A stretch of 64,000 nt of DNA from Methanobacteriota archaeon (GTDB lineage Archaea; Thermoplasmatota; E2; DHVEG-1): positions 2,580 to 66,579 of the forward strand of contig CAIRCU010000006.1 in NCBI GenBank assembly GCA_903877165.1, in the 5' to 3' direction. Made by a program: the position numbers and the translations under genes. A model generated the notes under the pieces. It was given only the letters and a program-made list of their open reading frames with translations. It made no database searches and was not told the DNA's origin. This document shows positions 1,376-50,178 of this stretch, piece after piece (the first letter of the stretch is position 1; every line of letters starts with the position of its first letter).

Positions 1376-1855
1376 GTGCCAGCCACACCACAGACTCCAA
1401 CCGTCAGACACGCGACACCAGACGACCTCCCCAGCATCATCGCCCTCGAAAACAAATGTTTCCCCGGCCCCATCGCCTACACCCCACGACAGCTCTGCTA
1501 CCTCCTCACCACAGCCAACAGCGCCGTCCTCGTCGAAACCCTCCACAACCGTCTCCGCGGCTTCATCATCATCCTCTACCGCCGCGGCTCCACCACCGCC
1601 GGCATCGAGACCATCGACGTCGACCCAGACGCCCAACGCAATGGCATCGCACGCCGACTCCTCACCGCCGCAGAAGACGACATGCACGCCCACCATATCG
1701 CCCGCGTCAGACTCGAAGTCTCAACCCAAAACACACCGGCCATCGGCCTCTACCAACACGCCGGATACAACACCACAGAGTTCCTCCACAACTACTACAC
1801 CTACAAGCATCACGGCTCACGCGACGCGTTCCGCATGACCAAAGACCTCTCATGA
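1376..1855 (+). CDS. GNAT family N-acetyltransferase (RimI-like)
   Basis: ATPDDLPSIIALENKCF, the RNGIARRLL acetyl-CoA binding motif and the Y...GY tail identify it. It is likely leaderless; a TTTAAATA box sits at 1345-1352. Confidence 0.8.
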   Translation: MPATPQTPTVRHATPDDLPSIIALENKCFPGPIAYTPRQLCYLLTTANSAVLVETLHNRLRGFIIILYRRGSTTAGIETIDVDPDAQRNGIARRLLTAAEDDMHAHHIARVRLEVSTQNTPAIGLYQHAGYNTTEFLHNYYTYKHHGSRDAFRMTKDLS

Positions 1856-3276
1856 CGAGGCACCACGCAGGACACCCACTCCCCGTCCTGTAACCCGCAA
1901 TACCCTTTTGTGTACTCCTCCATGATCGACAGCAGACTGTCACGGAACTGCGCAGGGACGTACTCCATGCTGCACGACGGACCGTTGTGGATTCGCTCCA
2001 CATGATCGACGCTGCGCACCTCAGGCCCAGCACCCCCCTGCATCAGGAAAAACGACTGCTCCTTCTCATCCTTATCCAGCTTCAGGTTCGACGTCTTCAC
2101 CCGGGCAGGGAACCCTTCCACCGCCTGCTTCGTGTACCGAATCAGCTGCGGATCGATCTTATTGGCGAGCAAGAACAACAGGATTCCCATGCACTTCGAG
2201 CACGTCCCGCAGGGGATGACCTCCTCGCCTTCGATATGGCAAGAGTGGCATGACCGCTGGTTCCTCGCAAGATCAGGGTACCGCGAGAACAAGATCCGCT
2301 CCACGATCAACCCCGTGATGGGCCGCACCGCCGACCACTGCACCATCCCAGGCATCCGCCGTTGGTACCACAGGTTCATCCGACGATCGAAGCTCACATC
2401 CTGGTCATAGATGCCATAATAATCAACCAGCCCCTTGAACGACGGCGTCATCCGCAGATCATCAAACTCGCTGCCAATCAGGAGGTTACCGATCCTCCGC
2501 TGCGCGAACAGCGGCATGAGCGCGAACACATAGTACGGGAAGATGCACATGCGGACGGGGTACACATCCGCCCTGATCTGCCGGTGGTCTTTCCGAATAA
2601 AGGGCAAGTGATCCAGCATGAACAGATAGAAACGATCCACGTTCGTCCACACCCGTCCCGTGTTCGGCTCGGTCTGCTCATGGTACCGATACGCGGTCAT
2701 CGCGGTTCGCCAATGCCCGCCGCTCTCATTCACATACAGCGGATGCACATCCACGCCAAGCTCCTTGAGCATCCCGTACGTGGTAAGACTTTCCTTCCCG
2801 CCGCTTGAGAGAATCCCACAGCGCAATGCATCGAAGTCTTTCTGTAGAGGGGCATCCGTCGCAATCGAATCAGGGATGAAGGTCGATTTCGGCTTCGCGG
2901 CCGCCGCCGTCGCATCCTCTTCAGCGATCTGGTACCCGGGCAGCAGGTACGGCGCCGACGGCTTGACGAGCTCATGGATATACGTCTCACCGCAAAACAC
3001 CGCGTTGAGATCATTGAGGAGGCCGAGGTCCGCGGAGCTGACCGGGAACCGCAGGGTGAACCGCTCAGTGAACAACCCGTAGTTCAGCAACGGCATGCAG
3101 AACGCGAGCCGGAGAAACGGTAGAAACTCAGAGGAGATCGGATCTTGGTACTGCAGGGACAGGTCGAACGAGAACTGCTGCTTGTGCCGCGTCGTTAGGG
3201 TCACGGTCGTCGTCGCCGTAGTCTTATCAATGACGGGCTCTGAAAGGCTGATGTCTTTGAAGCAGACGAAATCCAT
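1810..3276 (-). CDS. PP-loop (N-type ATP pyrophosphatase) superfamily protein with an unknown ~150-aa N-domain and C-terminal Cys cluster
   Basis: The SGG-K-ES motif (ILSSGGKESL) is a variant of the PP-loop SGGxDS. The C-terminal region carries CHSCH...CGTCSKC (CxxC...CxxCxxC), as in QueC/TtuA-like zinc or Fe-S sites. The ATG at 3276 is coupled to the stop of the upstream DUF1611 gene. Confidence 0.55.
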   Translation of the reverse strand: MDFVCFKDISLSEPVIDKTTATTTVTLTTRHKQQFSFDLSLQYQDPISSEFLPFLRLAFCMPLLNYGLFTERFTLRFPVSSADLGLLNDLNAVFCGETYIHELVKPSAPYLLPGYQIAEEDATAAAAKPKSTFIPDSIATDAPLQKDFDALRCGILSSGGKESLTTYGMLKELGVDVHPLYVNESGGHWRTAMTAYRYHEQTEPNTGRVWTNVDRFYLFMLDHLPFIRKDHRQIRADVYPVRMCIFPYYVFALMPLFAQRRIGNLLIGSEFDDLRMTPSFKGLVDYYGIYDQDVSFDRRMNLWYQRRMPGMVQWSAVRPITGLIVERILFSRYPDLARNQRSCHSCHIEGEEVIPCGTCSKCMGILLFLLANKIDPQLIRYTKQAVEGFPARVKTSNLKLDKDEKEQSFFLMQGGAGPEVRSVDHVERIHNGPSCSMEYVPAQFRDSLLSIMEEYTKGYCGLQDGEWVSCVVPRHERSLVMRNASREP

Positions 3277-3278
3277 AG

Positions 3279-4334
3279 TTAGGTCACCTTTTCCGTTAAC
3301 GGTTCGATCGCGTCGATGATGCCGGCGACGCCATCGGTGAGCGGGTCGACGACAGGGACATGAAACAGATTAGCATAGCGTTGGATGACTGCAGGCATTT
3401 GGGCCGGTGAGAGATGCTCATGGTTCAAACCGATCCCAAGCAATGGTTTTTCCGTTAAAAGCTCAGCGATGGTGACGACGCGTTTGGGATCCGGCATGGG
3501 ATAGCCTGGGAAGCCGTCGAGATGCGGCCGGCCCGGGGCATCCATGAGCAGAAACCCATGGACGCGACCAGCAGCGAGGATTTCGAAACCGCCGGGGAAA
3601 AAGGGATGGACGAGGCTGCCCTGCCCTTCGATGACGATGAACTGCGGATGGTCGTCCCTCCAGCTGTCGATGATGGCGCCTTCGATACCGCCGGAGACGA
3701 AGTCGTTGATGAGGGCGTCGAGGACGACGCCATGACGCCAGCCCTGCATCCAGCCGGTCTGCCCCGTGAAAATCATGTCCGCGCTGTACCCGCGTTTCCG
3801 AAGCTCGTTGACCAAAACGACGGCCATGGTGCGTTTACCAATCGCGGAGTCCGTGCCAAGCAAGGCGATGCGCACCGACGGGATGTTGATTATTTCCCCG
3901 GTGTAGAACCGCTTGTGGTCCCGGTAGATTTTCCGTACATCGGTGATGGTGCAGCCGTGTTTGTTAGCGAGAGCGACGCAGCGCGGCTTGTCCGAAATGA
4001 ACTCGTGCAGACCGGAGACGACGTTGAGGCCATGACCAAGGGCCCATTCGACCGCGCCCTCGTACCCCGATGGGAGGACGCCGCCTTCGGAGACCGCGCC
4101 GACGATGAAGGTCTCCGGCTTGGTTCGCATGACTGCAGTCTCAAGTGAAGGAAAGACGGGAATGCCGCTGGGTTTTCCATCCAGGATCTGTCCGGCGTCG
4201 CCGCCAGGCAGCGTGGAGTCAACGACGCCGACGATGCTGTAGCGTTGGCAGTAGCGGACGAGGCCATGAGCGGTCTTGCCGTCGGTCGCGGTAAAGAGCC
4301 GGTCAGCGTACACGATAGCGCGTGGTAAGGTCAT
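3279..4334 (-). CDS. DUF1611 (COG3367, DgcN-like) domain protein
   Basis: 351 aa with an N-terminal Rossmann-like domain and a C-terminal P-loop-like GTDSAIGKRT motif, the usual DUF1611 architecture. It lies between the PLP-enzyme and PP-loop genes on the same strand. Confidence 0.6.
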   Translation of the reverse strand: MTLPRAIVYADRLFTATDGKTAHGLVRYCQRYSIVGVVDSTLPGGDAGQILDGKPSGIPVFPSLETAVMRTKPETFIVGAVSEGGVLPSGYEGAVEWALGHGLNVVSGLHEFISDKPRCVALANKHGCTITDVRKIYRDHKRFYTGEIINIPSVRIALLGTDSAIGKRTMAVVLVNELRKRGYSADMIFTGQTGWMQGWRHGVVLDALINDFVSGGIEGAIIDSWRDDHPQFIVIEGQGSLVHPFFPGGFEILAAGRVHGFLLMDAPGRPHLDGFPGYPMPDPKRVVTIAELLTEKPLLGIGLNHEHLSPAQMPAVIQRYANLFHVPVVDPLTDGVAGIIDAIEPLTEKVT

Positions 4335-4382
4335 ACGAAGATCACGTTCGATGGTCCTGGAAAAGTCCTCACGCTGTTGGTG

Positions 4383-5399
4383 TTAGCGGAATTTCCTCCC
4401 CGTGAGAACAAGGACGTAATCGGAGTTGAGGACGCGGTGCTGTTTGAATCTGATGAGTGCTTCGATGGGGCTGGTGGAGGCGGGAAGCACGTTGAGGCCT
4501 TCGAAGTCTCTGAGGATCCTATGGTACTTCATCATGGAGGCGTCACTGGCGTAGTCCGCCCAGCCATTGCTGTCGTAGATCGCGCTGAGGGCGTCGTCGC
4601 CGTCGTACGAATGGTAGCTGATGAGCGGCTCGTTAATCGTAGTCTCATGGAGCTCCTCAGGGCGGAGGTCCTCGGTCTTGGAGGCACCGGTCTTGAAGCT
4701 GCGCACGATCGGGTTGCCACCTGGAGTGGAGGCGCCGACGAGGTAAGGAATGTGGTCAATGATGCCCTGGTCGAGCAGGTGTTTGAAGCCGTGGTAGATG
4801 CCGACGAGGGTAGTGCCGTTGCCGACCGGGGCAGCGACCGCGGTGGGGCAGCGGCCGAGCTGCGCGTAGATCTCAGTCGCGATGCTCATGTAGCCGCGCC
4901 AACCTTCGTTGCCGTTGCCTGGATTCGCGTCGTAGTAGTGCTCGGTCTTGGCGAGCCTTCGGCTGGCTTCGACCGCGTCTTCGTACTTATCGTAATCGCT
5001 GAGGATCTCTGCGCCGAGTGAGTGGAGCGTTTCGCGGCGATGCGGCGTCATGGTGTATTTCTCTGGGATGAGGATTTTTGCTTTGAGGCCGACTAGGTTG
5101 GCGAAGTACGCGAGTGAGACGCCGTAGTTACCGCACGTACCCACGGTGACGGTATCGTACCCCTCACGCATCGCCTTGTGCACGTGGTACTGAGAAATGC
5201 GGTCCTTCTGCGTCCCAGTGGGATTGCTGCCTTCGAACTTCAGGTAGATGTTCCCAAAACCCAGGAGCGACTCAAGGTTTCGCGCGTGAGTAAATAATGT
5301 TCCCCCAACCACCTTGGTGGGTGGCGGCTCCTCATCTTTTTGGAGGCCCAACACATCCATTTTTTGTAAACTCCCATGTCCTTTGACGATTTGGGACAA
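4383..5399 (-). CDS. PLP-dependent fold-type II enzyme (threonine synthase / Trp-synthase-beta-like)
   Basis: YLKFEGSNPTGTQKDR matches the threonine-synthase PLP-lysine motif (F/LEGxNPTGSFKDR). A glycine-rich loop (GTCGNYG) is present. At 338 aa it is shorter than canonical ThrC. Confidence 0.65.
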   Translation of the reverse strand: MSQIVKGHGSLQKMDVLGLQKDEEPPPTKVVGGTLFTHARNLESLLGFGNIYLKFEGSNPTGTQKDRISQYHVHKAMREGYDTVTVGTCGNYGVSLAYFANLVGLKAKILIPEKYTMTPHRRETLHSLGAEILSDYDKYEDAVEASRRLAKTEHYYDANPGNGNEGWRGYMSIATEIYAQLGRCPTAVAAPVGNGTTLVGIYHGFKHLLDQGIIDHIPYLVGASTPGGNPIVRSFKTGASKTEDLRPEELHETTINEPLISYHSYDGDDALSAIYDSNGWADYASDASMMKYHRILRDFEGLNVLPASTSPIEALIRFKQHRVLNSDYVLVLTGRKFR

Positions 5400-5571
5400 G
5401 ACCCTATATGTGAAACGAGTTCTTAAATTTTTACGTAACGACGCTGTTCGAAAAAATTTTTTTTGCGCGTTTGGAAAATTTCGTGAGGCTCACTTTGTTT
5501 TCTTCGTCGCAACGACTGAGCGTGTTTTCTGCACCGCGGCGTGTGTTTTTTTGTGAGCTGTTTTCCCTAGG

Positions 5572-5583: not shown

Positions 5584-5633
5584 CCATGTCATTGCCAGGC
5601 GTAGGATCACCTCTACGAACTAGGAGCACTACT

Positions 5634-5765
5634 ATGCCGCATTACTGCAGTATTTGTGGAGATGAGTTAGAGCCTGAAGAAGAGCAAGAGGGTATCTGCG
5701 AGAGCTGCAAGCTTTCTCAAGGCGTGGAACCCGGCACGGATGATGTGGAAACCGAATCCCATTGA
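5634..5765 (+). CDS. small acidic zinc-ribbon protein (43 aa, CxxC...CxxC)
   Basis: Manual translation gives MPHYCSICGDELEPEEEQEGICESCKLSQGVEPGTDDVETESH. Two CxxC pairs are present. An upstream TATA box, a downstream hairpin and a T8 run flank it. It is too short for the ORF track. Confidence 0.45.
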   Translation: MPHYCSICGDELEPEEEQEGICESCKLSQGVEPGTDDVETESH

Positions 5766-5826: not shown

Positions 5827-5920
5827 CAATGGTCTCGGACCCGCTTTTTCTTCCTCATGGATATTATTAAATAGTCTTCGGGCGTTGACGAAACCAGTAA
5901 TCTACTAGGAGAAAACCTGT

Positions 5921-6154
5921 ATGGCCATTGGCTTTGTCTTAATTCATGTCGCGCCCGCGCATGAGCACGAGGTCTACAACAAGCTAACAAAACTGCCGCA
6001 GATCATCGAGCTGCATCCGCTGTTCGGTGAGTACGATCTCATCGCGAAGATCGAGGCGAAGGATTTCGAGGAACTCGGGACGATCATCGTCAACAAGATC
6101 CGCTCGATTACCGGCGTGCTTGACACCAAGACCTTGACCGGACTGACGTTCTAA
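5921..6154 (+). CDS. stand-alone Lrp/AsnC ligand-binding (RAM) domain protein
   Basis: 77 aa. VLIHVAPAHEHEVYNKL...YDLIAKIEAKDFEEL matches the AsnC C-terminal regulatory domain. No HTH is present. Confidence 0.7.
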   Translation: MAIGFVLIHVAPAHEHEVYNKLTKLPQIIELHPLFGEYDLIAKIEAKDFEELGTIIVNKIRSITGVLDTKTLTGLTF

Positions 6155-6681
6155 GGTCTTCGTTTCGCATCAGGGTGTTGGTACATCCGGTACGCGGTCC
6201 GCTTGTCCGGCAGCACCAGCCCGTTGTGCAGGTCGCCGATGTACGAGGAGAGCGTCGGCTGCGGGTGCCGCGACGGTTTTTCCATACGCAGGATCAGCAG
6301 CTGCCCGATGCGCATCCCTGCCTTCAGCGTGAACGCCGTGTCCGAGGCGTTGAAGATCTCCAGCGTCAGATTCCCATCGGAGCCCGGCGAGATCAACATG
6401 CTGCCCATGTGCGAGGTGATGCCGAACCGCGCGAGCGTCGTGGACCCGTCGTACAACCCCGCATGGTCGTTCGGCATGGTGACGTGTTCGAGGGTAGAGC
6501 TGAGGATGAGTGCCTTTGGCTCCAGGATGTAACTGTCTTGGGTCTGGATGACTCCCGCGGGTTTGGCGAACTGATTCGAGAGGTGCAGACGCAGCGAGGC
6601 CGACTTCAGGATTGGCTCCGGGGTGACCTTCAGTTTCTTCTGACTAAGGAGTTCAGCAATCGATTGATCAGAAAGCAGCAT
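6151..6681 (-). CDS. dcd: dCTP deaminase
   Basis: MLLSDQSI...LRLHLSN...PNDHAGLYDGSTTLARFGI matches the dCTP deaminase/dUTPase fold. I set the start at the internal Met (MLLSD), typical for Dcd. The ORF extends to 6702. Confidence 0.8.
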   Translation of the reverse strand: MLLSDQSIAELLSQKKLKVTPEPILKSASLRLHLSNQFAKPAGVIQTQDSYILEPKALILSSTLEHVTMPNDHAGLYDGSTTLARFGITSHMGSMLISPGSDGNLTLEIFNASDTAFTLKAGMRIGQLLILRMEKPSRHPQPTLSSYIGDLHNGLVLPDKRTAYRMYQHPDAKRRP

Positions 6682-6746
6682 AGGCCCTCGCAGGCACAAC
6701 AAGCCGGCGTCGTATTTAAGGATTGGTGACGACCGTTTGAGGCACT

Positions 6747-6756
6747 ATTATATATG
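6747..6756 (+). promoter_or_regulatory. TATA-box-like element (ATTATATATG)
   Basis: About 50 nt upstream of the ATG at 6806. Confidence 0.25.
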
Positions 6757-6805
6757 TACAATGGGATTCACGCACGCCCCATGGTAAAGGGAGTCGTGAG
6801 AACCT

Positions 6806-7708
6806 ATGGCCTACTGTACACGCTGCGGGGTGCAGAACCCCGAGGATGCACACTACTGCAGTAAATGCGGATCCCTGCTGGCCGGGTCCAGCGTAGACCT
6901 CGAGCGGCACATCCATCATTTCTCCCAGGAAGTCGAGGAGTTGGGCCGGCGGCTTGACCGCTCAATCCAGAACAGGGAGCGGCGTCACGAGTCATGGTAC
7001 GACCGCACGTTCGGCGTCTTCGGGCCACTCATCAGCAGCGTCATCGGCCTGCTAGTCCTCCTGCTCGTCATCCAGGCGCTCATCACGGTGAGCGGCCAGG
7101 GTGTATGGCCCATGCGGGTCGCCAACTTCCTTAAGAACTACATCGGGGTCCTATTCGTACTCATGCTGATTGGGGGATACGTCTCGTATCTCTCCCGGAA
7201 GTACCGTCCGTTCCGCTGGGTCGCGCCGCTCATCGGCGGCATCATCTTCTACATCATGCTGTGGCTAGTGAGCATTATCCTCTCAGCTCTCAGCGTGGAC
7301 CTCGCGAACCAGACGCTTCAGACCATCTCCAATCAGTTCACGGTTCTCGCCTTGCCGCTGACGTTCCTCATCGTCGGCTTAGGGTACATCGGATTGTTCT
7401 TCTCACTATCACGACATGACGACCATCCGCTGCCTCCCACACCGCCATCACCGACGCCCGCACCGTCGGCAGCCCCGGTTCAACCACCCATGCCAGCGCC
7501 CGTTGCGCCGCCCGCGCGCCTCTATCGCTCGGGGCGGGAGCGGATTCTCGGCGGGGTCTGCGGCGGCATCGCCGAGTACCTCAACATCGACCCGGTCATC
7601 ATCCGCGTGGTGTTCGTCATCGGCATGGTCCTCTCCTTCGGCGTCCTCGTCCTCGGGTACTTCCTACTGTGGATCCTCGTGCCGCGCAACCCCAGTCATC
7701 CATGGTGA
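6806..7708 (+). CDS. membrane protein with N-terminal zinc ribbon and C-terminal PspC domain
   Basis: The N-terminus CTRCGVQNPEDAHYCSKCG is a zinc ribbon. Four TM helices and a Pro-rich linker follow. The C-terminus LYRSGRERILGGVCGGIAEYLNIDPVIIRVVFVI is the PspC signature. Confidence 0.75.
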   Translation: MAYCTRCGVQNPEDAHYCSKCGSLLAGSSVDLERHIHHFSQEVEELGRRLDRSIQNRERRHESWYDRTFGVFGPLISSVIGLLVLLLVIQALITVSGQGVWPMRVANFLKNYIGVLFVLMLIGGYVSYLSRKYRPFRWVAPLIGGIIFYIMLWLVSIILSALSVDLANQTLQTISNQFTVLALPLTFLIVGLGYIGLFFSLSRHDDHPLPPTPPSPTPAPSAAPVQPPMPAPVAPPARLYRSGRERILGGVCGGIAEYLNIDPVIIRVVFVIGMVLSFGVLVLGYFLLWILVPRNPSHPW

Positions 7709-7767
7709 CCAGGAAAAGAAAGCAGCCCTGAAGCACCATCCCCCCTTTTTTGTTCCTCCTTGTGTGA

Positions 7768-7838
7768 CAGCCCCGGGCGGATTTGAACCGCCGACGTTGG
7801 CTCCAAAGGCCAAAATGTTGCCACTACACCACGGGGCT
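7768..7838 (-). tRNA. tRNA-Gln (anticodon UUG), archaeal-type
   Basis: Manual fold gives acceptor AGCCCCG/CGGGGCU, D-arm GTGT-AGTGGCA-ACAT, anticodon stem TTGGC/GCCAA with loop CTTTGGA (anticodon TTG), and T-arm GGCGG-TTCAAAT-CCGCC. There is no encoded CCA. The discriminator is G73. Confidence 0.85.
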
Positions 7839-7870
7839 ATAGACCTACCCGGTAACAGAGCCATGGCATT

Positions 7871-9559
7871 TTAAGGTTTAGGACCCGCCGCGCTCTGAAT
7901 CTTCCCCCATGTGTCCCGCAGTTCCGTCGTGCGGTTCAAGACGAGATGGCCGGGGGTCGTGTCAGTGTCGACGCAGAAGTACCCGAGGCGTTCGAACTGG
8001 AAGCGATCTAGCGGCTTGCAGGTCTTGACCGCTGGCTCGACCTTACACTGCTGCAGGATCTCCAGGGATTGGGGGTTCAGGAGCGTCTTATAGTCGGCGC
8101 CCTTCTGATCCAGGGGATCGCGTACCGTGAACAGCTTGTTGTACAATCGGACTTCAGCGTCCACGGCGTCCGATGCGGACACCCAGTGGATCGTTGACTT
8201 CACCTTCCGGCCGTCCGGGGCGTACCCGCCCTTGGTCGCCGGGTCGTACGTGCAGCGCAGCTCCACGACCTTTCCATCGCGTTTGACGACATCCCGGCAG
8301 GTGATGAAATACGCGTAGCGCAGCCGTACCTCGCGGCCCAGGGCGAGACGGTAGAACTTCGGCGGCGGCTGCTCCATGAAGTCGTCCTGTTCGATGTACA
8401 GGGTCTTGGAGAACGGGATCCGCCGCGAGCCCATGCCCGGGTCCTCAGGGTTGTTGACGGCGTCGACCTCCTCCTTGGTCTCCGGGTAGTTCTCAATCGT
8501 CACTTTCAATGGCCTTAGGACGCCCATGTACCGCGGCGCGGTCTTGTTGAGATCCTCGCGGATGCAGTACTCGAGGAACTCGAAGTCCACGATGCTGTTG
8601 ACCTTGGCGACACCGATGCGCTTGGCGAACGTCCGGATCCCTGAGGGTGAGTACCCGCGTCTGCGCATCCCGGAGATCGTCGGAAGCCTTGGGTCGTCCC
8701 AGCCTTTGACGAGGCCGTCATTCACGAGTTGCAGTAGCAGCCGTTTGCTCATCACCGTGAAGGTGAGGTTAAGGCGGGCGAACTCGATTTGCTGCGGGTG
8801 GTACACGCCGAGGGCGTCCAGGAACCAGTCGTACAGCGGACGGTGGTTCTCGAACTCAAGTGTGCAGATCGAATGCGTGATGTGCTCGATGGAGTCCTCG
8901 AGGCCGTGCGCCCAGTCGTACATTGGGTAAATACACCATTTATCCCCTGTGTTGTGATGGGTGGCGCGCAGGATGCGGTACATCACCGGGTCGCGCATGT
9001 TGAGGTTCGGGTGGTTCATGTCGATCTTTGCGCGCAGGACCTTGGAGCCGTCCGGGAACTCCCCGGCCTTCATGCGGCGGAACAACGAAAGGTTCTCGTC
9101 GATGGAGCGGTCGCGGTACGGGCTCTTCGTCCCTGGATTGGTGAGGGTGCCACGCAGCTCCGCGATCTGGTCCGCGGTGAGGTCGTCGACGTACGCCTTG
9201 CCTTTCTTGACAAGGTCTTCTGCGTACGTGTACATCTGGTCGAAATAGTCGGAGGCATAGAACAATCTGTCCTGCCAGTCGAAGCCGAGCCATTTGACGT
9301 CCGTGATGATGGACTGGACGTACTCCTCTTCTTCTTTGGCTGGGTTGGTGTCGTCGAAGCGCAGGTTGCATTTGCCGTTGTACTGCTCGGCGATGCCGAA
9401 GTTCAGGCAGATGGATTTCGCATGGCCGATGTGCAGGTAGCCGTTTGGCTCCGGTGGGAACCGGGTATGTACGCGTCCCTGGTACTTGTTGGACGCGAGG
9501 TCCGCGTCGATGATCTCTCGGATGAAGTCCTTGCTTGCCTGCGGCTCGGCCATCTTCAC
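7871..9559 (-). CDS. glnS: glutaminyl-tRNA synthetase, bacterial-type
   Basis: Full-length collinear similarity to E. coli GlnRS, including [27 protein letters not shown] (HIGH), [14 protein letters not shown] (KMSKS), WCIYPMYD and the C-terminal anticodon-binding beta-barrels (HWVSA...FQFERLGYF). Confidence 0.9.
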
Positions 9560-9584
9560 ATCTCCCTTTTCTTGTGGTGATGAA

Positions 9585-9656
9585 GCAGCCCCGAGCGGAT
9601 TCGAACCGCTGACAAGAGATCCAGAGTCTCCTATGTTAACCGCTACACCACGGGGC
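9585..9656 (-). tRNA. tRNA-Gln (anticodon CUG), archaeal-type
   Basis: Manual fold gives acceptor AGCCCCG/CGGGGCU, D-arm GTGT-AGCGGTTA-ACAT, anticodon stem GGAGA/TCTCT with loop CTCTGGA (anticodon CTG), and T-arm AGCGG-TTCGAAT-CCGCT. The discriminator is G73 and there is no encoded CCA. Confidence 0.85.
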
Positions 9657-9789
9657 TATGCGACTTGGGTGAAACAGAGAGCAGATAAAAAAAGGTAGCT
9701 ATAATACTTTTCAGGGCGTCCCGGCGCGATAGACGGGTGGGAGAAGCCCGTGTTGAGGACGGGGGACGCGAAAGGAGAGGCAGTGCGGT

Positions 9790-10059
9790 TTATCCTTTGG
9801 TGAACAGGATGTTGCCGGAGGGGGTCATGGCCTGGAGGGATTCGTTGTTCTCGATGTAGAGGGTCAGGTGCTGTCCCTGAATCTCGCAGCCCAACAGGAC
9901 GTAGTCCGTGGCGTCCACTGGGTAGAGCAGGATGTTGGGGATGAGGGTCCCTTGGGTGGTTTCCCCTGAGTCGAGGCTCAGTTCAACCGTGGCCTGGGTC
10001 TGAGTGATGCTTGCGTTCAGGGTCTGCGTCCAGTTGCCGTTGATGTCGAAGGTGTCCAT
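9790..10059 (-). CDS. C-terminal portion of a secreted protein; same frame as 10108-10731, separated by a single TAA (possible pseudogene or read-through)
   Basis: Same reading frame as the upstream ORF. The 16 codons between them encode KIPVAYTYPDLTGNWT, continuing a GNWT motif that recurs right after the Met (DINGNWT). Confidence 0.4.
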   Translation of the reverse strand: MDTFDINGNWTQTLNASITQTQATVELSLDSGETTQGTLIPNILLYPVDATDYVLLGCEIQGQHLTLYIENNESLQAMTPSGNILFTKG

Positions 10060-10107
10060 GGTCCAGTTTCCGGTGAGGTCCGGGTACGTGTATGCGACCG
10101 GGATTTT

Positions 10108-10731
10108 TTAGAACGTGACGTTGACGTCGTCGAGGTAGTACGTGCGGCTCGTCTCCCAGGTGCCCCAGACGCCGATGCTTATGTAGAGCGTGCCGGTGGC
10201 ACTTGAGGTCGCGACGAAGTCGTAGGATTTCGGGAACCAGATGAGGTTGGTGGTGTTCACGCCGTTCCCGGTCTCATCTTGGTAGATGAGTCCTGCTGAG
10301 GCTGGGGGTTCGGCGGTGACGCTGGTGATGATGCGGAAGAGGTTCATGCCGTAGTCCGAGGTGCCGAACTGGTAGGAGACCGAGATGTAGTACTGGGATG
10401 TTGGGTCGACGTGGAAGGCGCGTTGGATCCAGATCTTGCCTGCATCGTTGAGGTTGTCCAGCTGGAGTTGGAGGCTGGTGGTGCCGTCCATTGCTTGGGT
10501 GGTGGTCCGGTTGATCCACCAGTGGACTGGCGGGTCGAGAAGGTCGGTGCCGTTCGCGGTCCAGTTGTCCATGGATGTTTCGAAGGATGATCTGGTGGAA
10601 TTGACGTGCGGCTGCGAGGGAGGTGGGTGTTGGGTCGCAGGGGTGCTGGTGTAGATGATGGCGATGCCGATGGCGGTCAGGGAGAAGACGATGAGGCAGA
10701 TGATGAGAATAGCTTTAGTCGCAAGGCGCAT
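10108..10731 (-). CDS. secreted/membrane-anchored protein, N-terminal portion (signal-anchor), unknown function
   Basis: It has an N-terminal hydrophobic helix (AILIICLIVFSLTAIGIAIIY) and a Ser/Thr/Asn-rich extracellular domain. It ends at a TAA and continues in frame into 9790-10059. Confidence 0.5.
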   Translation of the reverse strand: MRLATKAILIICLIVFSLTAIGIAIIYTSTPATQHPPPSQPHVNSTRSSFETSMDNWTANGTDLLDPPVHWWINRTTTQAMDGTTSLQLQLDNLNDAGKIWIQRAFHVDPTSQYYISVSYQFGTSDYGMNLFRIITSVTAEPPASAGLIYQDETGNGVNTTNLIWFPKSYDFVATSSATGTLYISIGVWGTWETSRTYYLDDVNVTF

Positions 10732-13538: not shown

Positions 13539-14285
13539 ATGGATCCCCGACCCTCCATCATCGCCACCCGGTTCGCCCGCATCAAGACCGTGATCGCGGT
13601 CGCCAGCGGCAAAGGCGGCGTCGGTAAAAGTATGATAGCCGCCACACTCGCACTTTCTCTCGCAAAAAACCACCGCGTCGGCCTCTTCGACCTCGACGTC
13701 TATGGACCCTCAGCCCACCTCATCCTCGGAGCTTCTGACCTCCAACCCACGGAGGACAAAGGCCTCGTCCCACCCCGCATCAGCAACGTCTCTTTCATGA
13801 GCCCTGTGTTCTTCACCCAAGGGAGAGCCTCTCCGCTGCGCGGCTCTGACGTCACCAACATGATCCTCGAACTCCTCGCCATCACCCAATGGAGGAAACT
13901 GGACTATCTCATCCTGGATATGCCCCCGGGCATCGGCGACGAGACCCTGGACGTCATCCGCTTCGTCCCCAACTGTACCTTCCTCGTCGTCACCACGCCC
14001 TCCAAGGTCGCGATGGGCGCGGTCGACAAACTCCTCGACATCCTGCAGGAACTCCACCGCCCCATCATCGGAATCCTAGAGAACATGGCAACCGAACCCT
14101 CACCTATCAAAGACGACATCACGAAGCGCAGTCTGCGCTACCTCGGCAGCCTCCCCTACGACCCGTCCCTTGAGGCCGCACTCGGACACCCAGAAAAGAT
14201 ACTGACAACACCTTTCGGACAATCCCTTCGCCGCCTCCTCCCAGCAATCGAACGCTACGAGACCGCGGCTTCCTCAAACAAGTAA
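13539..14285 (+). CDS. Mrp/MinD-family P-loop ATPase lacking the Fe-S CxxC motif; probable HypB-type Ni-insertion partner of HypA
   Basis: IAVASGKGGVGKS is a deviant Walker A, and the fold is ParA/Mrp. No CPxC follows the ENMA segment. It is tightly linked to hypA (4 nt gap), as with the Mrp/MinD-type HypB of Thermococcus kodakarensis. Confidence 0.6.
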   Translation: MDPRPSIIATRFARIKTVIAVASGKGGVGKSMIAATLALSLAKNHRVGLFDLDVYGPSAHLILGASDLQPTEDKGLVPPRISNVSFMSPVFFTQGRASPLRGSDVTNMILELLAITQWRKLDYLILDMPPGIGDETLDVIRFVPNCTFLVVTTPSKVAMGAVDKLLDILQELHRPIIGILENMATEPSPIKDDITKRSLRYLGSLPYDPSLEAALGHPEKILTTPFGQSLRRLLPAIERYETAASSNK

Positions 14286-15526
14286 GTACGGGCCTCACCC
14301 ACCGTGAACAACGACCCGGTCACGCAAATCAAATCCTGCTCCCCCGCGACACTCATCGCTGTCCCCAGCGCCTCTGGAACCGTCGCGCAGACAAGGACAT
14401 CTTGTTTCTCCGCAAGCGACCGCGCCAGCTCCAGCAGCTCCTGCGGTTGACACGCCCGCGGGTTCGACGACCTCGTCAACACCACCGTGGACGCCACCGG
14501 CATGATGATCTCCAGCATCCGCCGGACATCCTTATCATGACAGATCCCCACCACTAATACGATATTCATCTCCGGGAAATCCTGATCCAGCGTCTCCCGC
14601 AGCATCGCCATCCCATGCGGATTATGCGCCCCATCCAGCACGATTAGCGGCTCATCCGAGACGACCTCCATCCTCCCCGGGTTGAACGCCTCAGTAATCC
14701 CCTCAGTAATCGCCTGATCCGAAATGAACACACCCTGCACCTGCAGCTGCTCAAGAGCAGCAAGCGCCACAGCGACATTCTGCCCCTGGTACACCCCAAG
14801 CATCCCGGTACTCACGGTATATTCCCGCAGCTCCCCCTGTACCCGGAACTCCTGCGACGACTGAGAACGACTCGTCCGCCTCCACTTCTTGTCATCGACC
14901 ACGACCACCGTTGACCCAAGCTTCGTAGCGGCATCCTTGATGACAGCAAGCGCACTGCCAGAAGCAGCGGTCACCACAGGCACGCTAGCCTTGATAATCC
15001 CCGCCTTCTCAGCGGCGATCTTCTCCTCCGTCTTCCCAAGGATCTCCGTATGCTCCAGCGCAATATTCGTAATCACCGACACAAGAGGAATGATGACATT
15101 CGTGGCGTCGAACCGGCCGCCAAGGCCGACCTCCACCACCGCGTACTCCACTTTCTTCTCCTTGAAATACAGGAACGCCAGCGCCGTCGTGATCTCAAAG
15201 AACGTCGGCGGCTCCCCCTCAGCAATCATCTGTTCAACCACAGGCCGGACTCTGGCCACGTACCGGTCGATGTCCTCACCGCTGATCGGCACATCATCGA
15301 TTACGATGCGTTCCGAGAACCACTGCAGATGTGGAGAGATATACACCCCGACATGGTACCCCGCGGCCTCAAGCACGCTCGCGACGTACTGGCAGACCGA
15401 ACCTTTCCCGTTCGTCCCCGCGACATGCACGCACCGCAGGCCCTTCTGCGGGTCTCCCAGGCGCTGCAACAGGAGCGACACGCGTTCCAACCCGAACTTC
15501 CAGCCGTACTTATCAAAGCTGTACAA
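14255..15526 (-). CDS. folC: folylpolyglutamate synthase / dihydrofolate synthase
   Basis: GLERVSLLLQRLGDPQ...HVAGTNGKGSV (P-loop) and the Mur-ligase fold identify it. The start is uncertain: no ATG/GTG lies near the expected N-terminus, so I set a TTG at 15526. The ORF-track ATG at 15736 would overlap all of purN's 3' end. Confidence 0.7.
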   Translation of the reverse strand: MYSFDKYGWKFGLERVSLLLQRLGDPQKGLRCVHVAGTNGKGSVCQYVASVLEAAGYHVGVYISPHLQWFSERIVIDDVPISGEDIDRYVARVRPVVEQMIAEGEPPTFFEITTALAFLYFKEKKVEYAVVEVGLGGRFDATNVIIPLVSVITNIALEHTEILGKTEEKIAAEKAGIIKASVPVVTAASGSALAVIKDAATKLGSTVVVVDDKKWRRTSRSQSSQEFRVQGELREYTVSTGMLGVYQGQNVAVALAALEQLQVQGVFISDQAITEGITEAFNPGRMEVVSDEPLIVLDGAHNPHGMAMLRETLDQDFPEMNIVLVVGICHDKDVRRMLEIIMPVASTVVLTRSSNPRACQPQELLELARSLAEKQDVLVCATVPEALGTAMSVAGEQDLICVTGSLFTVGEARTYLFEEAAVS

Positions 15527-15548
15527 CCACTGGATCCCAGGCGAATTC

Positions 15549-16220
15549 TCAGTAGCCGTCAGAGTACAGCACCTCAGGATAACACTCGTACTTCGTCTTC
15601 CAGGAATCCCCGGGCAGGATCCGGACGTACCGACCCTCGATAACCAGACGACCCTGCACGAACAACTCGATCGTCCGAGGCAGAACCTGATGCTCCACCT
15701 CAAGGATCCGCTGCGCCAAAGTATCCCTGGTATCACCAGGTAGTACCTTCACCGCGGCCTGCAGGATGATCGGGCCATGATCCATCTCCTCATCCATGAA
15801 ATGCGTCGTGCACCCGGTGATCTTCACGCCGTACTGCAGCGCATCCCCTGGCCCGTTCACCCCTTTGAACGATGGAAGCAGCGCAGGATGGATGTTGATC
15901 AGGCGGCCTTTCCATTTCCGGACGAACTCCGGGGTCAGGACCCGCATGTACCCTGCGCCGACCACCAAGCCCACCTGATGCTGCTCCAAAATGGAGTCAA
16001 TCTGCGACTCATGCATCACCCGATTCTTCCCGACGCACTCGATGCAGTACCAGGGGATGTGGTGCCGCTCCGCGCGCTTCAACGCCTGCGCCTCCGCCCG
16101 GTCACTGATCACGACCGCGACGGTAGCGTTGATCCGCCCATGTTCTGAGGCGTCGATGATGCTTTGCAGATCGGTCCCAGACCCGGATGCGAGCACCGCG
16201 ACTCGAAGACTCTTCCCCAT
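15549..16220 (-). CDS. purN: phosphoribosylglycinamide formyltransferase
   Basis: LRVAVLASGSGTDLQSII, NIHPALLP and the HFMDEEMDHGPII motif are present. I chose the internal Met (MGKSL) as the start. Confidence 0.85.
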   Translation of the reverse strand: MGKSLRVAVLASGSGTDLQSIIDASEHGRINATVAVVISDRAEAQALKRAERHHIPWYCIECVGKNRVMHESQIDSILEQHQVGLVVGAGYMRVLTPEFVRKWKGRLINIHPALLPSFKGVNGPGDALQYGVKITGCTTHFMDEEMDHGPIILQAAVKVLPGDTRDTLAQRILEVEHQVLPRTIELFVQGRLVIEGRYVRILPGDSWKTKYECYPEVLYSDGY

Positions 16221-16285
16221 ATATTCCCTCTGTGTTCTTTTGCACCGAACCATCTACGATGTTTTCAATGTTCCGGCTCCATTTT

Positions 16286-18707: not shown

Positions 18708-19335
18708 GGGTATCCTCTCCTGCTTTCACTTTATCACGGAGTTTCACGGCAAGCGTGGAGACGGCAGCCTTGGGAAGATACACGTCCACGCGCGAACCCA
18801 GACGGATCAACCCGATGCGATCCCCTTTCTTCACTCGGTCGCCTTCCTTGATGTAGGGGATGATGCGTCGGGCGACGGTCCCCGCGATCTGCATGACTTT
18901 CACGCGGCCAACCGAAGAGTCGAAAAGTAGTGTCACGCGCTCGTTACGTTCGGAGTCCTTGGAGAACGCGGGGAGATGGCTTCCGTTTGTATGCTCCAGG
19001 CGGACGACGGTGCCGTCGACCGGGCTTCGATTCACATGCACGTTGTGGATGTTCAGGAAGGTCTTGACCCAGATGCAGGATCCCACATCCGGGTCGTCCA
19101 CAGGGGAGATGCCGGTGATGATGCCGTCAGCGACCGCGACGATTCCGGATCCGATGGTTCGCTCGGGATCACGGAAGAATACCACGAGGAGAACCAAGCC
19201 TATGATTCCAAGGAAGGTGAGGATGAGAAACCCGAAGCGTAGAAGCCCCTGGAGAACCATGCTGGCAGCGACGCAGGCGACCGTGACTAGCCCGACGCCC
19301 ACGATCCATGCAAGACCGCCACGCGCGATCCTCAT
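18688..19335 (-). CDS. psd: phosphatidylserine (archaetidylserine) decarboxylase proenzyme
   Basis: An N-terminal TM is present. The LGSRVD segment (GS cleavage-site region) and the overall size fit the small archaeal-type PSD. Its start overlaps the upstream membrane gene by 4 nt. Confidence 0.75.
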   Translation of the reverse strand: MRIARGGLAWIVGVGLVTVACVAASMVLQGLLRFGFLILTFLGIIGLVLLVVFFRDPERTIGSGIVAVADGIITGISPVDDPDVGSCIWVKTFLNIHNVHVNRSPVDGTVVRLEHTNGSHLPAFSKDSERNERVTLLFDSSVGRVKVMQIAGTVARRIIPYIKEGDRVKKGDRIGLIRLGSRVDVYLPKAAVSTLAVKLRDKVKAGEDTLADIHA

Positions 19336-20261
19336 GTGTGTTTCCCTCTAAAGATATGTTCAAGGGGGCCGTTGCGTTTCGGCAGTGAAATCGCATCCAT
19401 GATTTCATCGTATAACTCCGGGACAATCTTGAACGTGAGGAACAGCAGCGCGATGAGCGCAAGTAAGGAGCCGACCTTGCCGATGACGTTGTGCGCCATC
19501 TCAAAGGAGACGATACTGTCTCCGGTGAGTATCACGACTCCGGCGTTCCGCACCAGGTTCAGAAGGTAGACGGGGACGACTGTGGCAAGCAACGCGATGG
19601 CCCTGCGTTTCAGAGGGATCTTCGGCAGGGCGCCAAGCATTCCGACGAACAGCAGCAGGGACTGGATTGCTGTACAGGCGAAGATGATCCGGATGGGGAC
19701 GTCATTGTACAGAATGTTGGGCCCGTTCTGTACGGCACCGACCCCAAACAGATGGAGCAGCCAGACGGTCTGTCCGGCGACGGCCACGATGAGGCCGTCT
19801 CGGGCGCTGGGCAGCAGGATTTCAAGCGAGAAGTAGATAATGCCCGCTAGGAACGTCGCTCCTGCGATCCATTTCAGGGCGGAGGGGTGTTCATCGCGCT
19901 CTTTGGAGAGCCATTCGTGGTACGCCAGGTAGACGAGGACGTAGATGCCGACGACGCAGAGGGCGGCATTGAAAATATCGCCTCCTTCGGAGAAGTACAG
20001 CAGATTCGGATAGGTGGACCAAAACAGGGCGAAGAGCACCCAGCCGGTCATCTTCAGCTGGCTTCCGCGCTGCTTCTGACTGTCGAGTGTGCCGGCGCCG
20101 AGCAACAGCAGGCTGCTGAAGAGCGGGACTGCGATAACCCATTGGTAGGAGGGCTGCGGGTACGGGAAGAGGAAGAAGTTGACGAGGAGCATGGCTGACG
20201 GTCCGCCGAGGAACCACGCCAGAATCCGAAGATCCTTCCCAGATGTCTGTGATAGCGGCAT
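19332..20261 (-). CDS. artA: polytopic membrane protein, probable archaeosortase/exosortase family (ArtA-like)
   Basis: It has about 8 TM helices, a conserved Cys196 (IIFACTAIQ) and Arg238 42 residues later within NLVRNAGVVILTGD, as expected for the exosortase/archaeosortase Cys...Arg active site. It is translationally coupled to psd-pssA, the known genomic partners of artA. Confidence 0.5.
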   Translation of the reverse strand: MPLSQTSGKDLRILAWFLGGPSAMLLVNFFLFPYPQPSYQWVIAVPLFSSLLLLGAGTLDSQKQRGSQLKMTGWVLFALFWSTYPNLLYFSEGGDIFNAALCVVGIYVLVYLAYHEWLSKERDEHPSALKWIAGATFLAGIIYFSLEILLPSARDGLIVAVAGQTVWLLHLFGVGAVQNGPNILYNDVPIRIIFACTAIQSLLLFVGMLGALPKIPLKRRAIALLATVVPVYLLNLVRNAGVVILTGDSIVSFEMAHNVIGKVGSLLALIALLFLTFKIVPELYDEIMDAISLPKRNGPLEHIFRGKHT

Positions 20262-24819: not shown

Positions 24820-25171
24820 TTTTTGGACGTATATAGATATTAGGTGCCAGTTTTTGTGTGTTTGGCCAAAAACCCGGGGAGAACCTTTATTATTCCGCAA
24901 CGTCCTCTGTGCATGCGTGGGGAATACATGAAGACTGATAGCACCCCGGGGGGAATGACGACTGTGATGTGCGGCTTTGGAGGCCTTGTGGGATCTCTTC
25001 CCATTTGGAATGCCCAACGTTCCTTAGCCTTTTCAGGGTCGATGGCATCCCATATCTCCTCTTTCTCCTCAGATGGACGATCGCCTCCCGATCTCCATAA
25101 TCTTGTGCATGTACAAGCGTTCAAGGCTGCACAGTAGCGTCACCCCCTCCTCGGTGCTATACCTCCTCCAT

Positions 25172-27202
25172 ATGAATAGTAATTTTTATATACTCGAAGG
25201 TTCTTTGTTGGGGGTGGAGGCTAAGGGTTTCGTGCGACTGAGAATATTGGCGGTTAGTCTTCTATGCGTGTTATTGGCAAGCACTGCCTGGGGCGTCAGC
25301 TTGCCACGCACCACCGCTCCGCAAACCCTGGTCGTCCATCTCGACTTCCAAGCGCCAACCTTCGTCGCGGACGGCGACACGTATCGAATCACCATCCCGG
25401 AAGCTCCCGCCTGTCTCTTCGAACCCGGCTGGCCCGCCCTCCCAAAATACCTCCAGACCTTCACCCTGCCCTTCGGCGCCGACGTCACCAACGTCGCAAT
25501 ACACACCTCGCATACGTCCGTCCTCATCCTGTCACACCCACTCTCATCCACACCGATACCCGCGATAAGTGGTCTCCCCACGGACATCGTCAGCGAAAAC
25601 GCGTACGGGCCCATGGAGTTCTACCCGCCTCAACAAGTCCTCTACCAGACCGGAGGCGGACTCGACGCCGCAGGCAAGCACGTTACCTTCCTCACCCTCA
25701 TCGTCATCCCCGCCCAGTACCAGACCTCGACGACGGCCCTGCGCTGGGCATGCAACTGGACCATCACCCTGTCCTACACCATTCCCTCCCACAATCCGTT
25801 CCCTACCGAATCAACCACGCCACTGGTCATCATCACCCCCGCAAGGTTCACCAAGGCGCTCGAGCCGCTCGTCGCTCATAAGATTGCGCTCGGCATCCCG
25901 ACCACAGTGAAGACCCTCACCGACATCTACCGGGAATACAACGGAAGAGACAAAGCGGAACAAATCAAATTCTTTATCAAAGACGCGGTCGACCACTGGG
26001 GTACCAAATACGTCCTGCTCGTCGGCGGTATGTCCACGACGCTCTTTGGAATGCCACGGGACTCCTCAAGTCTCGGCGCGAACGACTGGTTCATCCCCGT
26101 CCGATACTCGAACCTCAAGGACTTCTACACACCCAGCGACCCCGGCTTCATCTCCGACCTCTATTACGCTGATTTGTACAACGGCAACGGGCAGTTCTGC
26201 AGTTGGGACTCCAACGGCGACGGCGTCTACGGCGGCTGGGACCAGCCGTCTCTGTCCGGCGGGACCGTCGTCCCCCTCGGTCATGGAACGGACACCCTCG
26301 ACTTCTACCCTGACGTCTGCGTCGGCCGTCTCCCCTGCCGGACGGTCGCAGAATGCCGCACCATGGTTGATAAAATCATCGCCTATGAAAGTGTCCCTGC
26401 GAGCGCCTCCTGGCTACAGCGCATCCTCGTGGCCGCAGGCGACCCGTACTACGACGCCGGCACGAACATTTATGAAGGCGAGGCGATCGGCGATGCCGTC
26501 ATCTCGGCCCTCCCAGGACTTCAATCCATGCGTCTCTACGCCTCGTTCGAGGGAAACGACTCCTCGGCAACTCCTCTGACCCGCAACATCCTTCGAGAGC
26601 TCGATGCGGGCTGCTGCTTCCTCTTGTTGGATGGTCATGGCGGGCCCGGCTGGTGGAACACCTGCTGGCCCGGGCGCTGCAACGCCACGATTCTCCTCGG
26701 TGGTCTCTCTGATGCTGATTTGTACCGGCTGCATAACGGGGGGCTGCTCCCTGTGACCGTCATCGGCGGCTGCCATTGCTGCCAGTTTAACGTTACCCTG
26801 CTGTCGACCCTCCTGGACCCCAGCAACTCCCATGCAACGTGGTCGAACGGCCATCCTCTGTTCCGCTGCCTTGGCGAGGCGCTTCTGATGAAGAAGAACG
26901 GCGGGAGCATCGCAGTGATTGGTTCCACGGGCCTTGGGTATGAGCAGTCCGGGGAGAACGGGGACCTGGATGGAGACGGGCGGAACCTGCCGGATAGCGC
27001 CGAGGCGCTCGGCGGGTACCTGGAGGTCTCGTTGTTCCAGGCGTACCAGAACGGGACCCGGACGCTTGGTATGCTGTGGACTCAGGCGATAGGGCAGTAT
27101 CTTGAGCATTACCCGGGGATGCTGAATCGCGATGATGCGAAGACCGTTGAGGAGTGGGTCGTGCTCGGCGACCCCAGCCTGCTCGTCGGCGGCCACACGT
27201 AG
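25172..27202 (+). CDS. secreted peptidase C25 (gingipain-like) family protein
   Basis: It has a signal peptide (RLRILAVSLLCVLLASTAWG), a catalytic His in LLLDGHGGPGWW and a Cys in VTVIGGCHCCQF. A GTG at 25232 is an alternative start; the ORF-track ATG at 25073 is probably too far upstream. Confidence 0.7.
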   Translation: MNSNFYILEGSLLGVEAKGFVRLRILAVSLLCVLLASTAWGVSLPRTTAPQTLVVHLDFQAPTFVADGDTYRITIPEAPACLFEPGWPALPKYLQTFTLPFGADVTNVAIHTSHTSVLILSHPLSSTPIPAISGLPTDIVSENAYGPMEFYPPQQVLYQTGGGLDAAGKHVTFLTLIVIPAQYQTSTTALRWACNWTITLSYTIPSHNPFPTESTTPLVIITPARFTKALEPLVAHKIALGIPTTVKTLTDIYREYNGRDKAEQIKFFIKDAVDHWGTKYVLLVGGMSTTLFGMPRDSSSLGANDWFIPVRYSNLKDFYTPSDPGFISDLYYADLYNGNGQFCSWDSNGDGVYGGWDQPSLSGGTVVPLGHGTDTLDFYPDVCVGRLPCRTVAECRTMVDKIIAYESVPASASWLQRILVAAGDPYYDAGTNIYEGEAIGDAVISALPGLQSMRLYASFEGNDSSATPLTRNILRELDAGCCFLLLDGHGGPGWWNTCWPGRCNATILLGGLSDADLYRLHNGGLLPVTVIGGCHCCQFNVTLLSTLLDPSNSHATWSNGHPLFRCLGEALLMKKNGGSIAVIGSTGLGYEQSGENGDLDGDGRNLPDSAEALGGYLEVSLFQAYQNGTRTLGMLWTQAIGQYLEHYPGMLNRDDAKTVEEWVVLGDPSLLVGGHT

Positions 27203-47742: not shown

Positions 47743-47762
47743 AAAAAATAGGAGATAGAATC

Positions 47763-50159: not shown

Positions 50160-50178
50160 GTCAAATGAAGGGAAAGAT

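Follow-up and report, generated by a model that had tools for sequence, protein, structure and literature searches.

An operon of three minus-strand genes was identified in a contig of a Methanobacteriota archaeon (GTDB lineage Thermoplasmatota; E2; DHVEG-1), within the stretch of 64,000 nucleotides (nt) analysed here and hereafter called the window (assembly GCA_903877165.1, contig CAIRCU010000006.1, positions 2,580 to 66,579). In order of transcription, it encodes a fold-type II pyridoxal 5'-phosphate (PLP) enzyme that resembles threonine synthase (ThrC) and falls in the PRK06381 group (gene A, 4383..5399), a DUF1611 protein that is a DgcN-like paralogue (gene B, 3279..4334), and a protein of 488 amino acids (aa) from an unnamed family (gene C, 1810..3276). 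We consider it very probable that this is a genuine, conserved and uncharacterised operon, and that C is an adenylating enzyme with the QueC fold. Much more tentatively, we propose that this conserved archaeal operon serves an undescribed small-molecule pathway, in which an amino acid or dipeptide would undergo N-acylation, adenylation and amide formation. A first-pass annotation of the window had suggested an adenylation-dependent modification of an amino-acid-derived substrate, and had recognised no described pathway. This interpretation is supported as a whole: profile searches placed none of A, B and C in a characterised pathway, the gene set matches no pathway described in the literature searched, and the three genes are strongly co-conserved in other genomes, with B and C even fused in one protein.

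No match to C was found in Pfam (even at E <= 10), NCBIfam, PADLOC or the PDB sequences. An AlphaFold model of C, built with 50 homologues, was confident (predicted local distance difference test (pLDDT) 84.6, predicted template modelling score (pTM) 0.87) and shows a PP-loop ATP-pyrophosphatase core of the QueC fold with a putative zinc motif, preceded by an N-terminal domain and followed by a helical C-terminal region. The best Foldseek matches of this model in the PDB were QatC (E 2.5e-4, 475 aligned columns), QueC, YcfA and Cap9, with TtuA and LarE next. Two QueC structures, 2pg3 and 3bl5, matched the core with a Foldseek probability of 1.0 (TMt 0.69 for 3bl5). When the C family profile was compared with the PDB, matches were restricted to the PP-loop regions of TtuA, MJ0690, Cap9 and MnmA, at E ~0.01.

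Canonical QueC contains an SGGxDS PP-loop and a zinc-binding C(x)8CxxCxxC motif (PMC13329287). Both elements have counterparts in C, at the sequences quoted in the first-pass annotation and found in the translation. The PP-loop SGGKES (2788..2805, minus strand, residues 158-163) corresponds to SGGx[DE]S in 66 of the 67 family members, with Asp in 23 and Glu in 43. The cysteine motif CHSCH...CGTCSKC (C343-x12-C356-x2-C359-x2-C362; 2191..2250, minus strand, residues 343-362) resembles the QueC zinc site except that its first spacer is longer: 66/67 members have C(x)12CxxCxxC, and 0/67 have the exact 8-residue spacing. Cys343, Cys356 and Cys359 are invariant, and Cys362 is kept in at least 90% of members. 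The experimentally defined catalytic signature of QueC consists of YxQxHxxE, VPxRN and YPDC (PMC13329287), and each of these three motifs was found in 0/67 members of the C family.

Like QueC, QatC, Cap9 and YcfA, C thus has a predicted Rossmann-type PP-loop ATP-pyrophosphatase core, with SGGx[DE]S and a four-Cys CxxCxxC motif in the same place, and like QatC it carries N- and C-terminal extensions around the QueC core. It differs from this group in its 12-residue rather than 8-residue first Cys spacer, in the lack of a PF06508 match and of the canonical catalytic motifs, in having DUF1611 as its partner instead of QueD/QueE, QatB or a CD-NTase, and in its archaeal chromosomal setting. Because all three QueC catalytic motifs are absent from the 67 members, the structural model places C in a new family or branch of QueC-fold adenylating enzymes, and not among the QueCs. 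That C might nevertheless be an isofunctional QueC (7-cyano-7-deazaguanine synthase), or another 7-deazaguanine enzyme of the archaeosine pathway, is suggested by its best core fold match to 3bl5 and by its QueC-type zinc motif and PP-loop. This appears extremely improbable, given the loss of YxQxHxxE, VPxRN and YPDC throughout the family, the missing PF06508 match, and the Pfam-annotated neighbourhoods, which contain no queD, queE or tgt. A 2026 survey of the QueC superfamily was confined to PF06508 members, and left its small archaeal clusters unanalysed. With C, the recently recognised repurposing of the QueC scaffold, as in QatC, Cap9, YcfA and LarE, gains a further branch, whose obligatory partner, DUF1611, is also new.

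To survey the distribution of C, homologues were collected by two types of search. A word-indexed search returned 1280 homologues of C, all unnamed, while an exhaustive HMMER search of 1.84 billion cluster representatives returned 210 relatives, 54 of them at E <= 1e-30; the family is compact. When each GTDB species was represented by one genome, relatives of C turned up in at least 573 genomes, almost all of which are labelled archaeal. The lineages include Thermoplasmatota, Bathyarchaeia, Thermococci, Aciduliprofundum, Korarchaeia (Methanodesulfokora), Nitrososphaeria/Conexivisphaera and Tiamatella, and the distribution across archaeal phyla is mostly single-copy. C represents a family with neither a Pfam or NCBIfam model nor a solved relative detectable by sequence, yet present in hundreds of archaeal species.

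Three loci labelled Eubacteriales or Myxococcales (L025, L039 and L040) carry an archaeal-type C at 50-53% identity together with a convergent GNAT gene, and L025 has the full A-B-C block; these bins are probably mislabelled, mis-binned or contaminated. A distant paralogue family of C was also observed (P0218 and others), with proteins of ~455 aa that are 25-28% identical to C over the PP-loop and Cys region and have no Pfam match; this family shows no linkage to DUF1611. In one archaeal contig (L087/L088, 7001-8383), such a distant paralogue stands alone beside an Orn/DAP/Arg decarboxylase gene, without a DUF1611 partner.

Gene neighbourhoods were counted for the best 80 C loci, the denominators being the loci with enough flanking sequence. 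A DUF1611 gene lies directly upstream of C on the same strand in 70/74 loci, and a PALP gene upstream of the DUF1611 gene in 46/62, the remaining 16/62 having no PALP gene next to B-C. Convergent and downstream of C, a GNAT gene is found in 40/75 loci, only in the clade in which C is at least 45% identical, to which both Thermoplasmatota and Bathyarchaeia contribute. Several loci contain fusions: in P0139 DUF1611 and C are one protein (DUF1611::C), with PALP ahead of it and creatininase and then MR_MLE after it; L085 has the order PALP, DUF1611, C::creatininase, MR_MLE; and in L089 DUF1611 is followed by a fusion of C with an S-adenosylmethionine (SAM)-methyltransferase (C::SAM-methyltransferase). 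B and C form the invariant core, an obligate pair that is sometimes a single polypeptide, and A, GNAT, epimerase and hydrolase are its recurrent accessories. With hundreds to thousands of homologues of each gene, and a gene order repeated in dozens of species-level genomes, the cluster is not due to chance. Two unusual arrangements were also noted. In L041 (CP070836.1, a Thermoplasmatales chromosome, 5863-10545), C, GNAT, an M14-like peptidase and MR_MLE occur together while PALP and DUF1611 are missing from the locus, and in L064 the DUF1611 gene is 4.7 kb from C, beyond a gene of 1531 aa.

Within the window, the open reading frame (ORF) list confirmed the three minus-strand ORFs at the coordinates given in the first-pass annotation. 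The gap of 48 nt that it reported between A and B is correct, whereas the proposed -1 nt ATG/TGA overlap between B and C is not: the junction reads GTG ACC TAA ct ATG GAT, which leaves a 2-nt spacer (+2 nt). In relatives, the B and C genes overlap by 8-35 nt. Gene A is listed as a 338-aa ORF with a TTG start. Its homologues start at an ATG 13 codons downstream of this TTG, so gene A probably extends over 4383..5360 (325 aa, ATG start at 5360), as judged from these homologues. Upstream of A, a TATA-like A/T-rich element, aaaaatttaaga, was noticed by inspection only at ~5421-5432. An Rfam scan upstream of the operon returned no riboswitch, and a scan for promoters and terminators of the bacterial type was uninformative, the host being an archaeon. 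The intergenic region upstream of the operon also contains a small plus-strand ORF (5586-5765) with a CxxC...CxxC zinc-ribbon pattern, MPHYCSICGDELEPEEEQEGICESCK, and no Pfam match.

The PLP enzyme A was compared with authentic threonine synthases. Pfam PALP matches A at 4e-51, in agreement with the domain assignment made earlier, and A scores 406.7 bits against the cut-off of 266 bits for the NCBIfam model NF004996/PRK06381, which is named "threonine synthase" and is unvalidated. In TIGR00260 (thrC) it reaches 76 bits, below the cut-off of 167.1, and five further ThrC models of NCBIfam likewise failed. The first-pass annotation had described A as 60-80 residues shorter than ThrC. This holds against the long ThrCs only: solved short ThrCs (351-360 aa) align end to end with A at ~30% identity, and by this alignment A shows no marked truncation. 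The PLP-lysine motif FEGSNPTGTQKDR (5199..5237, minus strand; Lys65 in the 338-aa numbering), also quoted earlier, was found in the translation. Its NPTGTQKDR stretch aligns with NPTGSFKDR of ThrC, and nPTGTqKDR is kept in 55 operon-linked homologues.

A therefore shares with the short class II ThrCs, such as that of T. thermophilus (1UIM), its fold, a near-equal length and the NPTGxxKDR context of the PLP-lysine, besides passing NF004996. It departs from them in failing TIGR00260 and in two sequence segments. The ThrC segment NSVNPxRxEGQKT, which includes Ser155 and Arg160, is replaced in the 55 operon-linked homologues by YDANPG and then variable residues, among which no Arg is conserved, and the positions in the A protein of the window that align with Ser155 and Arg160 are Pro and Gly. 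The STGNT loop of ThrC becomes TCGNY in the A family. From the literature on T. thermophilus ThrC, we take Ser155 and Arg160 to be ligands of the phosphate of the substrate, O-phosphohomoserine. Since both this segment and the STGNT loop are replaced, A is ThrC-like in fold but probably not a threonine synthase. Its gene context also differs from that of ThrC, as A lies in a conserved operon with B-C and not with threonine-pathway genes.

For B (351-aa ORF; N-terminal Rossmann-like and C-terminal P-loop domain), the assignment to DUF1611 was borne out by Pfam, with matches to DUF1611_N (PF17396) and DUF1611 (PF07755) at 8.8e-23 and 1.3e-53, respectively. The structures 7xrj, 2obn and 2g0t match B at ~1e-32. 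B and the DgcN structure 7xrj have the motifs GTDxxxGK, TGQTG and IEGQGSL in common, and are 36% identical in these motifs. The P-loop-like motif GTDSAIGKRT of B (3828..3857, minus strand, residues 160-169) aligns with GTDCSVGKMY in 7xrj and GTDMAIGKMS in 2obn. With the DgcN model NF041892, B reaches 162.5 bits, far short of the 480 bits that this model requires. Public records name homologues of B only generically, as "DUF1611 domain-containing" or "NAD-dependent epimerase/dehydratase family", and literature on DUF1611, COG3367 and PF07755 yielded nothing relevant to such a gene set.

By N-acetylating D-amino acids, DgcN opens an acylate-racemise-deacylate route (NCBIfam description; PMC12363236). 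The resemblance of B to the DgcN/DgcA system extends from both DUF1611 domains and the conserved motifs of 7xrj to the neighbouring genes: an enolase-superfamily epimerase/racemase and a hydrolase accompany B in 21 loci and in the fused variants, echoing the acylate-racemise-deacylate logic. The differences are that B falls well below the DgcN cut-off (162 against 480 bits), that its constant partner C is missing from the DgcN pathway, that the epimerase next to it resembles dipeptide epimerases more than DgcA, and that the window itself has no epimerase.

These comparisons bear on the possibility that the routine annotation is right and the clustering incidental, A being ThrC, B a DgcN-type D-glutamate N-acetyltransferase and C an unrelated hypothetical protein. 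A lies above the NF004996 cut-off and would be named threonine synthase by the Prokaryotic Genome Annotation Pipeline (PGAP), it aligns end to end with short ThrCs, and DgcN is the sole named relative of B. However, A fails TIGR00260 (76 against 167 bits) and has lost the ThrC motifs, B reaches only one third of the DgcN cut-off, and the gene order is repeated in several archaeal phyla and includes B::C fusions; we regard incidental clustering as very improbable. A, B and C are not orthologues of ThrC, DgcN and QueC, each failing at least one defining feature, and their relation to these enzymes is an analogy of mechanism and not one of membership. The labels "threonine synthase" for A and "DgcN-like" or "NAD-dependent epimerase" for B are probably misleading here.

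The accessory neighbours were examined for indications of the substrate. In the window, a small GNAT acetyltransferase (1376..1855, plus strand, 159 aa) converges on C, its 3' end sharing 46 nt with the 3' end of C. It matches Acetyltransf_1 at 5.9e-16 (Pfam), the NCBIfam model that it matches best, RimI, gives 69 bits and requires 86, and it is probably an accessory member of the unit. In 21 loci, genes for MR_MLE (enolase superfamily) and an M14-like peptidase follow GNAT. The window contains no homologue of the MR_MLE, M14, creatininase or methyltransferase accessory genes. In NCBIfam, the MR_MLE neighbours come nearest to L-Ala-D/L-Glu epimerase, with 240 bits, and to DgcA, with 159 bits, and the creatininase domain comes nearest to the peptidase MftE, with 165 bits; all these scores remain below the cut-offs of the models (172 bits for MftE). 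Divergent from A in the window is a stand-alone RAM (Lrp/AsnC ligand-binding) protein of 77 aa (5921..6154, plus strand; PF01037, 8.2e-17). It occupies the same divergent position 5' of A in 11 related loci, where it is 87-95% identical while C is only ~55% identical, and it may regulate the operon by sensing an amino acid. All the accessories that could be identified belong to families acting on amino acids, N-acyl amino acids or dipeptides.

A role of the operon in the modification of macromolecules was weighed against this evidence. In such a role, C would attach or convert a group on a protein, as in the N-terminal deazaguanylation by QatC and Cap9, or on a tRNA, in the manner of TilS, TtuA or MnmA, with A and B preparing the donor. 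QatC is the top full-length Foldseek match of C and likewise surrounds its QueC core with N- and C-terminal extensions, and QueC-family proteins modify protein N-termini (PMC13279940). The wide, mostly single-copy archaeal spread of C would also suit a housekeeping modification. The N-terminal domain of C (2833..3276, minus strand, residues 1-148), predicted to have a beta-beta-beta-alpha-beta-alpha topology, weakly resembles the RNase-H-like folds of nucleic-acid enzymes. It was modelled alone with a pLDDT of 90.1, and Foldseek returned no PDB match at E <= 1e-3; the RNase-H-like topology (EndoV, Argonaute PIWI) appeared at template modelling (TM) scores of 0.3-0.39 and was not relied on. The isoelectric point (pI) of the C family ranges from 5.4 to 10.3, which implies no consistent basic surface and gives no signal of nucleic-acid binding. 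B begins with MTLPRAIVYADRLF and leads directly into the fold, without the flexible Gly-rich stretch that would be expected for this role. A PADLOC search with A, B, C and GNAT gave nothing significant, the lone match being DrmD to B at E 0.083, and no QatB-, CD-NTase- or TGT-like partner was found in the annotated neighbourhoods. As the recurrent neighbours are enzymes of small molecules or peptides, we consider macromolecule modification distinctly unlikely.

A more specific proposal along these lines is that the DUF1611 and QueC-like pair forms a housekeeping archaeal conjugation machine, in which A and B would prepare an amino-acid-derived or carboxylated group, and C would adenylate this group and attach it, as an amide or nitrile, to a macromolecule, for instance at the carboxylate of a tRNA nucleoside or at the end of a protein. 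There is perhaps a slim chance that this is so. If true, the machine would be a chromosomal archaeal counterpart of QatC/Cap9 chemistry, and possibly a missing enzyme for an archaeal modification. An involvement in anti-phage defence was rejected, on account of the lack of significant PADLOC matches, the stable synteny with housekeeping genes and the vertical-looking distribution.

We return to the small-molecule pathway proposed above, for which the fusions, the recurrence of dipeptide-epimerase-like and peptidase neighbours, and the divergent RAM gene point to amino-acid or dipeptide chemistry. As in DgcN, B would N-acylate the alpha-amino group of an amino acid or dipeptide with an acyl-CoA, leaving the amine protected. 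C would then adenylate the carboxylate of the N-acyl compound (ATP to AMP and pyrophosphate), and hand the activated carboxylate to a nitrogen nucleophile, ammonia or an amine, to give an amide, possibly a nitrile, or a new peptide bond. A may make the unusual amino-acid substrate or, through elimination or replacement at the beta or gamma position, trim off an amino-acid handle. In the loci that encode them, the dipeptide-epimerase-like enzyme and the hydrolase (M14-like or MftE-like) could change the configuration of a stereocentre and cleave off the acyl or peptidyl moiety, and GNAT might provide a second acylation. N-acylation ahead of carboxyl activation would be chemically sensible, because the free amine is kept from the acyl-adenylate, although this is an argument by reasoning only. 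We infer both the order of the steps and the substrate.

Precedents for the step assigned to C are found among its structural relatives. QueC adenylates a carboxylate and uses ammonia to convert it to an amide and then to a nitrile (PMC13329287), Cap9 and QatC pass an adenylated carboxylate to a protein amine (PMC13279940), and YcfA adenylates a carbonyl and adds L-Cys (PMC12494993).

The last of these precedents suggests a different use of the same genes, in which C would adenylate a carbonyl or carboxyl group of a metabolite, possibly a nucleobase or nucleotide, and add an amino acid directly as the nucleophile, after which A would cleave the adduct by elimination, so that S or N stays on the substrate as a thioamide, amidine or amide. 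ThrC-type enzymes are catalysts of elimination and replacement, as such a cleavage would call for. The structure of YcfA is among those that match C best, the sulfur transferases TtuA and LarE are also in its Foldseek list, and the PP-loop and PLP enzymes are co-encoded in 46/62 loci. In YcfA-YcfC, which acts in 6-thioguanine biosynthesis, GTP is adenylated and joined to L-Cys by the PP-loop enzyme before a PLP-dependent lyase cuts the adduct (PMC12494993). The two systems thus share a PP-loop adenylating enzyme and a PLP enzyme. However, the PLP folds differ, A having fold type II and YcfC being a relative of the cysteine desulfurases (PMC12494993), the DUF1611 partner exists only here, and YcfA acts on guanine nucleotides while no indication of a nucleotide was found in the operon. 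A heteroatom transfer of this type would also leave the near-universal B unexplained and would depend on A, which is dispensable in a quarter of the loci, and the four conserved Cys of C fit the structural zinc pattern of QueC and not the three-Cys [4Fe-4S] pattern of TtuA. Taken together, such a transfer seems unlikely.

Several points weigh against the proposed N-acylation, adenylation and amide scheme itself. The DgcN-type N-acylation by B is extrapolated from a homologue family in whose model B reaches one third of the cut-off. PP-loop enzymes also adenylate carbonyl and ureido oxygens and transfer sulfur, and TtuA, LarE and YcfA are in the Foldseek list of C. The full scheme cannot be universal, because A is missing in 16/62 loci, and GNAT, the epimerase and the peptidase are each absent from many, the latter two also from the window. 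A purely catabolic route would not usually consume ATP, and the N-terminal domain of C, for which no confident fold match was obtained, has no part in the scheme. Finally, the scheme is built from sequence, predicted structure and gene context.

The physiological role could be catabolic, for example in the use of D-amino-acid peptides derived from the peptidoglycan of bacterial cell walls, or biosynthetic. The lineages that carry the operon are abundant heterotrophs of sediments and hot springs, and a catabolic role would suit sediment heterotrophs and the MpaA/YcjG-like pair. An ATP-dependent pathway for amino acids or peptides in these organisms could bear on the use of detrital peptides or D-amino acids, or on a metabolite or modification. 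The gene set is small, and its reconstitution in vitro appears feasible.

Other features of the window were noted in passing. Two class Ic tRNA synthetases of the Glu/Gln type, of 562 and 568 aa, are encoded on the minus strand at 7871-9559 and 52689-54395, respectively. The 562-aa synthetase has the stronger catalytic-domain match (371 against 278 bits) and looks like a glutaminyl-tRNA synthetase (GlnRS); to our knowledge, most archaea are without GlnRS, which makes an archaeon with both enzymes noteworthy. A tRNA gene (7768-7838, minus strand; Rfam, 63 bits) lies between a PspC-domain gene and this GlnRS-like gene. A 493-aa Mur-ligase-family protein (14255-15736) adjoins a PurN-type formyltransferase (together 14255-16253, minus strand). 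It was considered as a MurT-like link to D-Glu chemistry and set aside; it is probably FolC-like. An archaeosortase-like gene is present at 19332-20261, and three tandem paralogues of ~790-800 aa each, which are probably surface proteins, occupy 45358-52551 on the plus strand, the first of them with Laminin_G_3 and DUF2341 domains. A 709-aa C25 (gingipain-like) peptidase, encoded at 25073-27202 on the plus strand, fits a protein-degrading lifestyle.

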